From: Roseiarcus sp.
GTDB lineage: Bacteria; Pseudomonadota; Alphaproteobacteria; Rhizobiales; Beijerinckiaceae
DNA length: 64,000 nucleotides
Reading direction: 5' to 3'
NCBI GenBank assembly: GCA_036489975.1
Contig: DASXES010000053.1
Span: 21,506-85,505, forward strand
The position numbers and the translations under genes were made by a program. The notes beneath the pieces are model-generated. The model did not search any database. It was not told the DNA's origin and saw only the letters and a list, made by a program, of their open reading frames with translations. Numbering within the stretch: the stretch's first letter is position 1; every line of letters begins with the position of its first letter. This document shows, one piece after another, positions 16,676-21,927 of the stretch.

Positions 16676-16701
16676 GGTCGGGGCGCCAGTCCGCCCCGAC
16701 C
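16676..16701 (+). terminator. GC hairpin after the arylsulfatase gene
   Basis: ggtcggggcg-N6-cgccccgacc, a perfect 10-bp stem with no clear U-tract. Confidence 0.5.
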
Positions 16702-17017
16702 TAACCCGAAAACGTCGACAAATATACTTATAAAAAATGTGTAAATGGAGATGGTGCTGGAAGCCGGAAAGGTGACTCGCTAATCGCGCCGCAACCCGTT
16801 GGAATTGCTCAAAACGGACTCGCTAATGCGCCCCTGGCCGGGCGACATCAGAATCTGGCGGGGAGCGGCGCAAAGCGGCGGTGACCTATAGACCGCGACC
16901 TATAGGAACGCGGAACAGCCTGAGACTAGCGAGTTGCGGCGCGGCCTTTGCCGTTCCGAACTTACCTCACCAGGATGGTCCATTTTGCCCGTTGGAGCAT
17001 GATAGGGTCCGCAGGCA

Positions 17018-18451
17018 ATGAGCTCCGCACGTCTGCGCGATCTGCCAGCGGTTGCCGCGGTCCTGAATACGCCTGCTGCTGGAATCCTCATCGAGCGATA
17101 CGGTCGCCCGGCCGCCACGGACGCTATTCGCGCGGCGCTCAACGACGCACGCGCGATGTTGCAGGCCGGAGGGCGTTCCGTCCCAGGCGGTGAGCGTATC
17201 GCCGCTCAGGCTCTCGCCTGGCTTGAGAAGGAAGGTCGCCCGGCATTGCGACCGCTGTTCAATCTCACCGGCACCGTGCTGCACACCAATCTCGGCCGCG
17301 CGGTGCTCGCTGAAGCGGCCGTCGGGGCGGCCGTCGCGGCTATGCGGAATGCCGTCGCGCTCGAGTTCGACTTGGAAACCGGCAAACGTGGCGAGCGTGA
17401 CGACCACATCAGATCCTTATTGTGCTCGTTGACAGGCGCCGAAGACGCGACGGTCGTCAACAACAACGCCGCCGCAGTGCTCCTATGCCTGAACACGTTC
17501 TCCAATGGCCGCGAGGCGGTGGTGTCGCGCGGTGAGCTCATCGAAATCGGGGGCGCCTTTCGCATGCCGGAGATCATGGCGCGCGCCGGGGCGCGGCTTG
17601 TCGAGGTCGGCACGACCAATCGCACGCACGCAAAGGACTATCTTTCGGCGTTTAACGCGGAAACCGGCGTGATTCTTAAGGTCCACACATCGAACTATCG
17701 CATCCAGGGCTTCACCTCCGAGGTCGGAACGCGAGAGCTCTCGACGATCGCCAAAAAGGCGGGCGTCCCCCTGCTGCACGACCTGGGATCGGGCACGCTT
17801 GCTGATCTCACGACCTATGGGCTAAAGCGCGAGCCGACCGTGCGCGAGGCTCTGGCTCAGGGCGCCGACCTCGTCACCTTCTCCGGCGACAAGCTGCTGG
17901 GGGGACCTCAGGCGGGCTTTATCGTCGGCAAGCATGAACTGATCGCCACGATCAGTCGCAATCCGATGAAGCGGGCGCTTCGAGTCGATAAGATCCGCCT
18001 GGCGGCGATCGAAGCCACGCTTAAGCTTTATCGAGACCCTGATCGACTCGCTGACGATCTCCCAACGCTGCGGCTCCTCGCGCGACCGCGACAGAGCATC
18101 GAGGCGAGCGCGGCTCGTGTATTGCCCTATGTCGCCCAGGAGCTCGGCGATGCGTTCGTGGTCGAACTTTGCGAATGCCAGAGCCAGATCGGCTCTGGCG
18201 CACTGCCGCTCGAGACGATCGAGAGCGTGGGTCTTTCGATCCGAGCATCGGCAAGCGGCGCGATCGTGGACTTGGCGCGCAGGCTGCGGGGCTTGCCGAC
18301 GCCGGTGATCGGACGCATCGAGAAAGACCGCCTGGTGCTCGACTTCCGCTGCCTCACCGAAGAACAGGCTTTCCTGTCTAATCTGGCGCATCTGAGAAAC
18401 GACGCGGCGGCTTCGTCCAAGCCGCGTGCTTCGCCGGACGGACGGCCGTGA
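17018..18451 (+). CDS. selA: L-seryl-tRNA(Sec) selenium transferase
   Basis: [36 protein letters not shown] and [13 protein letters not shown] (PLP lysine) motifs. Confidence 0.97.
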
Positions 18452-20529
18452 TCGCCGGGCTCGCCGGGCATATCGACCACGGCAAAACGGCTCTGGTGAG
18501 GGCGCTGACTGGAGTCGAGGGCGATCGCCTCAAGGAAGAGAAGGCTCGCGGCATTACGATTGACCTCGGTTTCGCTTACATGTCCGTCGCGGCAGGGCGG
18601 CCGATCGGCTTTATTGACGTTCCGGGCCACGAGCGCTTTGTGCACACCATGCTCGCCGGCGCCGCTGGCGTCGACTACGCGATTTTGACGATCGCGGCCG
18701 ATGACGGCGTGAAGCCCCAGACGCTTGAACATCTGGCGATCCTCGACTTGCTCGGCGTGGACCGCGGCGTTGTCGTGCTTACCAAAGCGGATCTGGCGTC
18801 TCACAAGCGTCTCGGCGAGGTCGACCGGGAGGCGCGAGCGATCATCCGCGGGACTACCCTCGCGAAGGCTCGCGTGCTGACCGTCTCGACGATGACGGGG
18901 CGGGGCGTCGACGCGCTGCGCGCCCACCTCGAAGCCGCGAGCAGCGCCACGAGCGATCGCTCTCAGGGGACCCGCTTTCGTCTTGCGGTCGACCGCGTCT
19001 TCACCCTGCAGGGCGTCGGCCTGGTGGCCACCGGCACAGTCTATTCCGGATTGGTGCGGGTGGGCGACCGACTCCAGATCAGCCCATCCGGGCTCGAGGT
19101 GCGCATTCGGTCCTTGCATGCGCAAAACAGGGCAGCTGAAACCGCGCGGGCCGGCGATCGCTGCGCGCTCAACCTCACGGGTCTGGGGGTCGGAAAGGAG
19201 GCGATTCGCCGCGGCGATATGGTGCTCGATCCCGGCCTTCATGCGCCTACGGACCGCGTCGATGCGATTCTGCGCCTCTTGCCGAGTGAGAAGAAGCCGC
19301 TCAGGCAATGGTTTCCGGTGCGTCTCCACCACGGCGCGTCGGAATTGAGCGCGCGCATTGTTCTGCTCGACGACAAGCCCGTCGCATCGGCAGAGGGGGC
19401 GCACGTCCAACTCGTGCTCGATCGGCCGATCGCGGCGGCAGCCATGGATCGCTATGTGATCCGCGACGCATCGGCGCAGCGGACCCTGGGCGGAGGCGTT
19501 TTCCTCGATCTTAGGCCGCCGGCGCGCAAGCGGCGCACGGCGGAAAGAGAGGCTCAGCGCGCGTCGCTTGCGATCCGCGATCCGGCCGCGTCCTTCGCCG
19601 CGCTCCTGGACTCGGCGCCGTTCGCCGCCGACCTCGCCGCCTTTGCGCGCGACCGCGCTCTCACGGCGGAGCGAACCGCCGAGCTTGCGTCCACCCTCAA
19701 CCTCGTCGTTCTCGAAACAGCGGATTCGAGAATGGCTCTCGCGCCCGGTCAATGGAGCGAGTTCACATCCAGGGCTGTTGACCGGATCGCGGCCTATCAC
19801 ACCGAAAACCCTGACCTTCAGGGCATGGGGCGCGAAGAGCTGCGCATGGCGCTTAGCCCACGGCTACCGAAGCCAGCGTTTGACGCCGCCTTGCAGAAGC
19901 TCGCCCGCGTGAACGAGCTCGCCTTGGAAGGCGCCTTCGTCAGACTGCCCTCGCATGAGATCAGGCTGACCGCTGAGGATATGGACGGTTGGCAGATCGT
20001 CGCGCCGCTGCTCGGGGGAACGGAGCGGTTCCGGCCGCCGCGGGTGCGCGACATTGCGGCGGCGACCGGCCGGCTGGAAGTGGATGTTCGGCGGATTCTG
20101 AAACGTGCTGGCCGTATGGGGTGGGCGGACGAGGCCGCGCACGACCATTTCTTCCTGCGCTCGACAGTGGGCGAGATGGTCGCGATTGCCGCAGATCTGA
20201 CCGCCGGGGCCGGACATGCCGGTTTCTCCGCCGCAGAGTTCCGCGATCGGACGGCGAGCGGGCGCAAAGTCGCGATCCAGATTCTCGAATTCTTCGATCG
20301 TCGGGGCGTGACCCTGCGCAAGGGGGATCTACGTCGGATCAATCCGGCTCGCCTCGACCTGTTTGGCCCCCGCGGCGAAACCTGTGACGATGGCCCCGGA
20401 GGAGAATCGTCCCCGGTGGGGCGCCCGGACTTCAAATCCGTGTGGGGCGGCGAGCCTGTCCCGGGTGGGTTCGACTCCCACTCTCTTCCGCCAGCCTGCA
20501 AGCCCGCAGGCTCTACTTCACCACGATAA
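18448..20529 (+). CDS. selB: Selenocysteine-specific elongation factor with a C-terminal extension across tRNA-Sec
   Basis: [25 protein letters not shown] and the SECIS-binding [13 protein letters not shown] motif. GTGA overlap with selA. Confidence 0.95.
20398..20493 (+). tRNA. selC: tRNA-Sec (anticodon UCA), 96 nt, CCA encoded
   Basis: 8-bp acceptor stem GGAGGAGA/TCTCTTCC plus GCCA; anticodon arm GGAC-TTCAA-ATCC; long variable arm; GGGTTCGACTCCC T-arm. Confidence 0.97.
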
Positions 20530-21556
20530 CCGGTTCGCCCCGCTCCGCCTTCCCGATGATCGCCGCGCAAGGATCGCCTTCCCGGATGCGCTCCAGGATG
20601 GCGGGCGCGGCTTGAGCCTCACAGGCGACGAGCAGACCGCCAGAGGTCTGCGGATCGGTCACCAGCAGGCGCCGCCAGTCTTCGAATCCGGGCGGCAGGA
20701 CGACGGCTTCGCCGTAGCTCGCCCAATTGCGGTGTGAGGCGCCGGTGACGAACCCGGCGCGGGCGAGAGCCTCGGCCAGAGAGAGCCGCGGCGCGTCGTC
20801 GACGTGCAGGCGGAGGGTCAGGCCCGCGCCCCGCGCCATTTCGAGCGCATGGCCGAGCAGGCCGAAGCCGGTGACGTCGGTCATCGCATGGACCGCTTGG
20901 TCGCGCCCGAGATCGGCGCCGACCGCGTTGAGGCGCGTCATGAATCCCAGCATCTCGCGATAGCCCTCATGGGAGAGCGCGCCCTTCTTAATGGCCGCCG
21001 AATAGATTCCGACGCCGAGAGGCTTGGTCAGGATGAGCGCGTCGCCAGGGCGAGCTTCCGAGTTGCGTCTGAGCCCCTTCATCGAGACAAGGCCCACGAC
21101 GGCAAGTCCGTAGATCGGCTCGGGCGAATCGATGGAGTGCCCGCCCGCTATGGGAATTCCCGCTTCCGCCGCCTTAGCCGCGCCGCCGCGCAGGATCTCG
21201 CGGATCACGCTGGCAGGCATTTTGTCGACTGGCATGCCGAGGATCGCCAGCGCAAAGATGGGCTTAGCTCCCATCGCGTAGACGTCCGAAAGTGCGTTGG
21301 TTGCGGCGATTTGGCCGAAGTCAAACGGATCGTCGACCATCGGCATGAAGAAGTCAGTGGTTGCGACAATGCAATTGTCGTCGTCGAGGCGCCACACCCC
21401 CGCGTCGTCGCCGGTCTCCGTGCCGACGATGAGGTTGACGAAGGGCGCAGCCGTGGGCTCGCCACTCAGCAGTTCGCGCAGCAACGCGGGCGACAGTTTG
21501 CAGCCGCACCCGCCGCCATGGGCGAGGGAAGTTAAACGGATGATGGGAACGTTCAC
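20513..21556 (-). CDS. selD: Selenide, water dikinase (Cys-type active site)
   Basis: [37 protein letters not shown] and DPQTSGGLL motifs. GGAGG RBS before GTG 21556. Confidence 0.96.
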
Positions 21557-21663
21557 GAGCTTCGTCCTCCTCCATTCTTGGCTGCCCACGCCGCCGACCC
21601 GGGCGTCGTGACCTGGATGCAACCTCCGCAGGAACTGCTTTCGGCCTAGCGAGGGGCTGACCG

Positions 21664-21722
21664 ATGCAACGATACGCGCTGCACGGCGATCAGTGGAATC
21701 GGATCAAGGACATTCTGCCGGT
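21664..21722 (+). mobile_element. IS5-family (IS427 group) transposase N-terminal remnant
   Basis: Translates as [19 protein letters not shown], resembling the remembered MRRYALRDDQW.RIKDLLP start of this family. The resemblance stops after about 19 codons. Confidence 0.55.
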
Positions 21723-21927
21723 CCTCCACATTCGGATCGCGCGGCCTCGAAACCCGCGCGGCGCTTCCGCTGCGCGGACCGTACTCGATTGCCTGCCGAT
21801 CATTTGACCCGAAACAGCCTGGCCGCTCGCGAAAGAGCCGACAAACAAGGTCGCCGGACCGCGGCGCAGAGACAAAGGTCAAAGTCGCCGCCAAAGCCGC
21901 ACGCTGAAGCCGACCGGCGCTTCTATG

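Follow-up and report, generated by a model that had tools for sequence, protein, structure and literature searches.

Can a protein-coding frame that runs through a complete tRNA gene be of use to the cell, or is such a run-on simply inherited and tolerated? The question is raised by the selenocysteine (Sec) locus of Roseiarcus sp., in which the ribosome must read a linker, the tRNA-Sec gene (selC) and 11 further codons before it meets the stop codon of selB. The window referred to here is the whole stretch of 64,000 nucleotides analysed (contig DASXES010000053.1 of assembly GCA_036489975.1, positions 21,506 to 85,505 of the forward strand). An initial annotation of this sequence had described selB as continuing without a stop beyond its last winged helix, through all 96 nt of selC, and ending at 20529, and had suggested that release of the tRNA and synthesis of full-length SelB may compete, giving a control of their stoichiometry. 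The nesting of selC in selB is already known, having been published in 2021 with an identical proposed mechanism, and the window contains this published arrangement in an uncultured soil alphaproteobacterium.

Organisation of the sel locus

The genes selA, selB and selC are arranged head to tail and are followed by a convergent selD (Table 1). Genes for a sulfatase, an FGE-sulfatase, a methyltransferase and a DUF202 protein are situated upstream of the locus, and ccmH and ccmF lie past selD. The stop codon of selA overlaps the GTG start of selB (GTGA), and the 3' end of selB overlaps the 3' end of selD by 17 nt. The read-through, this overlap and the out-of-frame TGA at 20385 are all found where the initial annotation had placed them.

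Table 1. Features of the sel locus and the Sec-containing formate dehydrogenase of the same genome. Positions are those of the window unless a contig is named.
Feature	Position	Strand	Basis or remark
selA (selenocysteine synthase, 477 aa)	17018..18451	+	Pfam SelA PF03841, E 2.6e-164; ORF list
selB ORF, 693 aa	18448-20529	+	ORF list, translation
selB core, aa 1-640, ending ...ARLDLFG	18448..20367	+	Pfam domains; alignment end q=640
Linker, 10 codons	20368..20397	+	Translation, comparison with relatives
Out-of-frame TGA in linker	20385..20387	+	Stop scan; 11 nt before the tRNA
selC = tRNA-Sec, anticodon UCA, 96 nt including encoded G73 and CCA	20398..20493	+	ARAGORN, Rfam RF01852
Post-tRNA selB tail, 11 codons and TAA stop (20527-20529)	20494..20529	+	ORF list, translation
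Small hairpin GCCTGC-AAGCCC-GCAGGC, between tRNA 3' end and selD stop	20494..20511	.	Sequence; stem in MFE fold
selD (selenophosphate synthetase)	20513..21622	-	Pfam AIRS and AIRS_C; translation
Sec formate dehydrogenase alpha subunit	L112, G000 contig C4:2191-5370	-	On a contig other than that of selABCD

The core of selB comprises a GTPase, domain II, a beta-barrel and winged helices, to which the Pfam families PF00009, PF03144, PF25461, PF09106, PF21214 (below its cut-off) and PF09107 have been assigned. The protein therefore has the EF-Tu-like GTPase, the domains II and III and the C-terminal winged helices of the SECIS-binding class that define a bacterial SelB. The last winged helix (PF09107) covers residues 590-630. 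Following residue 640 the frame is without a stop over the 10 linker codons, the 32 codons of the tRNA and 11 codons more, up to a TAA. A frameshift upstream would make the TGA at 20385 end SelB before the tRNA.

The tRNA-Sec itself is genuine. ARAGORN reports a tRNA-SeC (tca) at 20397-20493, and the Rfam family RF01852 is matched at 20398-20489 over all 91 positions of the model, its score of 77.1 bits exceeding the gathering score (47); the full-length match above the gathering score and the UCA anticodon assign the gene to the tRNA-Sec class, which has a long variable arm. The first nucleotide of the tRNA, G1, occupies codon position 1, as (20398-18448)/3 equals exactly 650, and selC corresponds to the codons 651-682 of selB, exactly 32 in number. 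The first of these is GGA, read as Gly, and the last is the CCA end, read as Pro, so that the tRNA-encoded peptide is GGE...LPP.

The small hairpin that follows the tRNA has no T-run, and no terminator was called there; it may be a 3'-end or processing element common to the two convergent units. The RNA fold of 20340-20545 is not more stable than that of shuffled sequences (z = -0.74), the tRNA and this 3' hairpin alone being notable. The SelD protein is of the Cys form, not the Sec form, in the motif GGGCGCK. The TTG start listed for selD adds about 25 residues before the conserved N-terminus, and translation probably begins downstream of it, at the GTG of VNVPIIRLT.... The genome makes use of Sec: codon 237 in the gene for the alpha subunit of a formate dehydrogenase, a protein that carries a Tat signal, is an in-frame TGA (...FDNQARVUHGPTVASL...).

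Relation to the nests described earlier

Mukai (2021, Int J Mol Sci 22:4605, PMC8124441) described selB ORFs that contain the whole tRNA-Sec in a variety of Rhizobiales and in some members of the Rhodobacterales, Rhodospirillales and Caulobacterales; the first residue of the extension is Gly (GGA) and the last is Pro (CCA). The same work reported a partial overlap of selB and selC in Dyella, Luteibacter and Nitrospirae, found that some lineages have lost the overlap, which was graded 'highly conserved but not essential', and stressed that the selB stop 'in many cases' overlaps the start codon of an ORF1 or ORF2 lying downstream on the same strand. It was hypothesised there that tRNA processing leaves a non-stop selB mRNA, SelB and tRNA-Sec being alternative products. 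The initial annotation had mentioned similar SelB tails in other Alphaproteobacteria, and both this publication and the loci analysed below bear it out. Its model of non-stop mRNA and SelB/tRNA homeostasis is identical to that of Mukai (2021, PMC8124441) and hence not new; judged from the sequence, it is logically sound and describes a possible mechanism. A search of the literature found no wet-lab test of the nest, and the reviews of 2022 and 2026 cite Mukai 2021 without experimental follow-up.

The window resembles the published nests in that the entire 96-nt tRNA-Sec is contained on the sense strand of the selB ORF with the same Gly GGA start and Pro CCA end, and in that its SelB belongs to the clade of the Hyphomicrobium, Xanthobacter, Mesorhizobium and Roseomonas-type sequences. 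It differs from them in the position of the selB stop, which lies 17 nt inside a convergent selD and does not overlap the start of an ORF1 or ORF2; no co-directional ORF of at least 60 aa starts near this stop. The sel locus is moreover not beside fdoGHI, the Sec formate dehydrogenase being encoded on another contig, and the host belongs to an uncultured genus of soil Alphaproteobacteria. The partial overlaps of the Dyella/Luteibacter/Nitrospirae type share the tRNA frame of the window, and the SelBs concerned branch inside the alphaproteobacterial clade, but in these SelB is terminated within the tRNA by a TGA at its positions 46-48 (loci L050, L069, L074 and L076), whereas in the window the whole tRNA is read.

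Chance level in a single genome

The tRNA-Sec of the window has no TAA, TAG or TGA in any of the three forward frames. The remark of the initial annotation that the tRNA is free of stop codons in the frame of selB is thus correct, but this property is not special to that frame. Among the tRNA genes of the genome (64.8% GC), 49 of the 132 tRNA-by-frame combinations (37%) are free of stops, and a random stretch of 44 codons is stop-free with a probability of about 0.32 as calculated from composition and 0.50 as determined empirically in the genome. As the tRNA is open in all frames and stop-free stretches are common, the read-through taken in one genome is within chance. Its conservation across relatives is beyond chance.

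Conservation of the frame and the tail

The tRNA-encoded peptide is present in all of the 120 top database homologues (67-92% identity). Genomic loci were collected from a genome search (11 loci) and a related-locus search (80 loci). Among these 91 loci, which were picked by similarity to a query containing the tail and therefore slightly favour nested forms, selB runs through the whole tRNA in 70, stops inside the tRNA in 9 and stops before it in 12. Isolate genomes are included among the nested loci, namely those of Hyphomicrobium facile DSM 1565, Xanthobacter, Mesorhizobium and Tardiphaga. The loci are related to each other and the counts are not independent, so that weight is placed on the distinct linker lengths and on changes mapped on a tree and not on raw proportions.

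Frame 0 is used by every one of the 79 ORFs that reach into the tRNA. Their linkers range from -3 to 90 nt with 17 distinct lengths, each an exact multiple of 3. Where selB stops ahead of the tRNA (12 loci), the frame relation is scrambled, with 5 loci in frame and 7 out of frame, as would be expected if indels were unconstrained. Since most of the tRNAs are open in all three frames, the conservation of the frame reflects the removal of frameshifts by selection in a region that is translated. The first stop past the tRNA is found at a median distance of 20.5 nt in the selB frame, and within 52 nt in 67 of the 70 nested loci; for the two remaining frames the medians are 104 and 141 nt. The frame kept through 17 linker lengths, together with the stop soon after the tRNA, indicates that the tail is genuinely translated and kept short.

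Both the length and the sequence of the linker are hypervariable among relatives, and Ala, Ser, Pro and Asp are abundant in it; the tail has a Gly/Pro/Ser-rich composition and no conservation outside the tRNA-encoded part. The GC content at the first, second and third codon positions is 0.75, 0.52 and 0.76 in the SelB body, 0.70, 0.59 and 0.64 in the linker and 0.61, 0.66 and 0.63 in the post-tRNA tail, so that the coding signature of the SelB body fades in the last two. In-frame stops in the linkers number 13 as compared with about 29 expected from composition, a depletion of about 2.2-fold, the other frames having 20 and 32. This deficit is the sole hint of selection for read-through itself, and shared ancestry could explain much of it.

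Two loci have unusual tails. In Xanthobacter sp. VTT E-85241 (L070:4966-5206) the SelB tail extends 145 nt past the tRNA as a Pro/Asn/Gln-rich repeat (NPNPQKPNPQNPGPQN...) and ends in an ATGA overlap with the next ORF. In a MAG of an uncultured alphaproteobacterium (L096:4960-5533) the selB frame departs from the usual reading of the tRNA in the T-arm (...GGFELPLSS...) and continues for 477 nt, selB being apparently fused to the downstream ORF; the departure is due either to a change of 1 nt in the tRNA or to an assembly error.

The same comparisons bear on the reliability of the window sequence. The genome is a metagenome bin of 144 contigs, and the out-of-frame TGA close to the tRNA could suggest that an indel introduced in sequencing or assembly has removed the real stop of selB by putting this TGA out of frame. 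The frame and the tail are, however, shared by all 120 top homologues, which come from many samples, and by 70 of the 91 loci, isolates included. Proteins from other samples that are 88-92% identical to this SelB are likewise 693 aa long and carry the same tail, the sampled 31-mers are present at 100% in two soil DNA runs and at 85% in a third, and the nest has been published for cultured species (Mukai 2021, PMC8124441). An indel of this kind, which the initial annotation had named as one circumstance that would overturn its reading, is very unlikely; with the homologues, the genomic loci and three DNA runs against it, an assembly error is effectively refuted and its probability is close to nil.

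Changes of state on the SelB tree

The SelB tree consists of 88 sequences, 68 of which are fully nested. The SelB of the window falls in the alphaproteobacterial clade that carries the trait, within a starred clade together with species of the same genus and as sister to Hyphomicrobium. The nest persists across many alphaproteobacterial families and over long branches. To account for full nesting and its absence, the tree requires at least 6 state changes, and branches with good support impose 5 of these. The changes concern Rhodoblastus, Ancylobacter, the clade of Dyella, Luteibacter and Rhodanobacter, the clade of L008 and L009, the pair of L040 (a MAG of an uncultured alphaproteobacterium) and Mesorhizobium atlanticum, and the locus L033 in the subclade of the window itself. 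The stop lies just before the tRNA in L033 and Rhodoblastus and inside it in Dyella, Ancylobacter and Mesorhizobium atlanticum. With at least this number of changes, the nest is dispensable in evolutionary terms, the outcome that the initial annotation had allowed as telling against its proposal. Such dispensability weakens the case for an essential role and is compatible with a modulatory one.

An alignment across Alphaproteobacteria had also been proposed in the initial annotation as a means of detecting stop avoidance in the selB frame of the tRNA. Of the 91 loci, 16 have stops within the tRNA in frame 0, as against 7 for frame 1 and 4 for frame 2. Stops in the selB frame are no rarer than in the other frames, and more than a third of the tRNA-by-frame combinations in the genome are stop-free in any case; stop avoidance has therefore been rejected.

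In the genus of the window, selB was detected in only about 9 of the 24 species sampled. In two species of the genus, L011 (G014) and L012 (G015), internal stops (TGA, TAA) interrupt the selB matches or the match lies on a very long branch (L012), which points to a decaying Sec machinery or to poor assembly. A contig labelled Candidatus Eremiobacteraeota (L047) encodes a SelB that groups, with its partially overlapped tRNA-Sec, inside the Dyella/Rhodanobacter clade; contamination of the bin or a recent transfer is likely.

Transcripts and promoters

Searches of sequencing runs for the locus of the window returned soil DNA runs only, RNA runs sharing just 6-8% of the sampled words. Four RNA runs were aligned, and their contigs derive from other organisms and align with the window only at two conserved places, the tRNA and a stretch of the winged helices. 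A scan for the sigma-70 consensus over 16700-21900 (5.2 kb) found no site, not even upstream of selA; in this GC-rich genome the scan carries little information, and selC may have an internal promoter.

RNA-derived contigs of 443 and 989 nt that span the tRNA-Sec and both its flanks were found for two cultured relatives (RNA runs X26 and X29). They hint at unprocessed co-transcripts, though they may also stem from carry-over of DNA. In both of these relatives a TAG directly abuts G1 of the tRNA, and RNase P would be predicted to cut immediately past the stop codon.

Origin and possible role of the nest

The explanation that we favour, with rather more confidence than doubt, is that the nest is an inherited, translated and tolerated run-on through a stop-free tRNA and that the mutual exclusion of its two products is a by-product. 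selA, selB and selC would be co-transcribed, and RNase P together with 3' nucleases would cut the tRNA from the selAB-selC transcript. The cut transcript would be devoid of the SelB stop codon, and its ribosomes would be rescued by tmRNA; an alpha-type tmRNA is encoded in the genome (288.6 bits), so that this step of the model is available. A transcript under translation would in turn be unable to fold the tRNA, which the ribosomes would mask. Because the one transcript would be non-stop and the other unable to fold the tRNA, release of tRNA-Sec would exclude completed SelB on any single RNA molecule. The run-on may have originated in an ancestral loss of the selB stop before a tRNA in which, by chance, none of the frames contains a stop. 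Selection would then only keep it harmless, by removing frameshifts that lead to a long junk tail and by retaining a stop soon after the tRNA. The openness of the tRNA in three frames, the lack of a frame-0 stop deficit within it, the minimum of 6 state changes, the hypervariable linker and the fading GC signature all speak for this explanation. Against it, the depletion of linker stops and the persistence of the nest could reflect selection for read-through itself.

Selection of that kind is assumed in the proposal made by Mukai (2021) and by the initial annotation, according to which the nest has been kept since SelB and tRNA-Sec are alternative products of one transcript. We regard this as possible though doubtful, and view with the same reserve its further element, that the product of the non-stop selB mRNA would be tagged by tmRNA and degraded, keeping SelB from exceeding Sec-tRNA-Sec. 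The logic follows from the anatomy of the locus, and tmRNA is present; the nest has been retained for long across many alphaproteobacterial families, in-frame stops are depleted in an otherwise unconstrained linker, and the nest persists beside a convergent selD, where coupling to a downstream ORF does not exist. Close relatives have nevertheless changed state repeatedly and stop before or inside the tRNA, there is no avoidance of stops in the tRNA relative to the other frames, and no experiment was found in the literature. A stop placed before the tRNA would moreover still leave an mRNA whose 3' end is stripped by RNase P, and the added regulatory gain is doubtful. A more specific form of the proposal, which we hold to be somewhat less probable again, is that of a selected switch: each selAB-selC transcript would yield either mature tRNA-Sec or terminated SelB, the SelB made from processed transcripts would be SsrA-tagged and destroyed, and the frame and the position of the stop would tune the time for which ribosomes mask the tRNA. 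The preferred interpretation remains that of a by-product, and the nest is not read as a tuned controller of stoichiometry. The interpretation given in the initial annotation is on the whole partly supported.

It could also be argued that the extension serves translational coupling to a downstream gene, since the stop of selB and the start of ORF1 or ORF2 overlap in many Alphaproteobacteria. An overlap of stop and start (ATGA or TGATG) with a co-directional ORF of 126-159 aa is present at about 23 of the 91 loci, and the point has been stressed by Mukai (2021, PMC8124441). The window has no co-directional gene downstream. A convergent selD is adjacent to selB in 21 of the 91 loci, including the window and Hyphomicrobium, and the nest has been kept in the window and in the 20 others. 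The gene order thus refutes coupling as the cause of the tail at the locus of the window and, with a convergent selD downstream, coupling cannot explain the tail in its lineage; we consider this explanation very improbable.

Comparison with other systems

A complete sense tRNA within a protein ORF is likewise found in the mitochondrion of Armadillidium vulgare, in which a tRNA-Lys is located in cox1 and excision of the tRNA and an intact mRNA are alternatives (Doublet et al. 2015, cited by Mukai 2021). That case concerns a compact organelle genome under pressure on size, with the tRNA inside a folded enzyme, whereas the genome of the window has 5.5 Mb and the tRNA is read into a disordered C-terminal tail. 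In E. coli, SelB is limited relative to Sec-tRNA-Sec, as it would be under the proposed control, through autoregulation by a SECIS-like element in the selAB mRNA (Thanbichler and Bock 2002, cited by Mukai 2021). The E. coli mechanism has been shown experimentally, SelB binding its own mRNA and selC being unlinked with its own promoter, whereas the control in the window is a hypothesis drawn from sequence.

Significance

In bacteria it is rare for a working tRNA gene to lie within a protein-coding frame, and such a nest obliges one stretch of RNA to act either as a tRNA or as a message. The window adds one more carrier, and quantitative comparative evidence, to a published bioinformatic prediction; the comparison adds that the tail is translated, kept short, dispensable and persistent without translational coupling downstream. 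The idea of a selected switch is already in print and its proof alone would be new. If true, it would be the first demonstrated case of a bacterial tRNA excision that controls the output of the protein using that tRNA. If cells do exploit the nest, it would provide a simple way of keeping an elongation factor and its dedicated tRNA in proportion.
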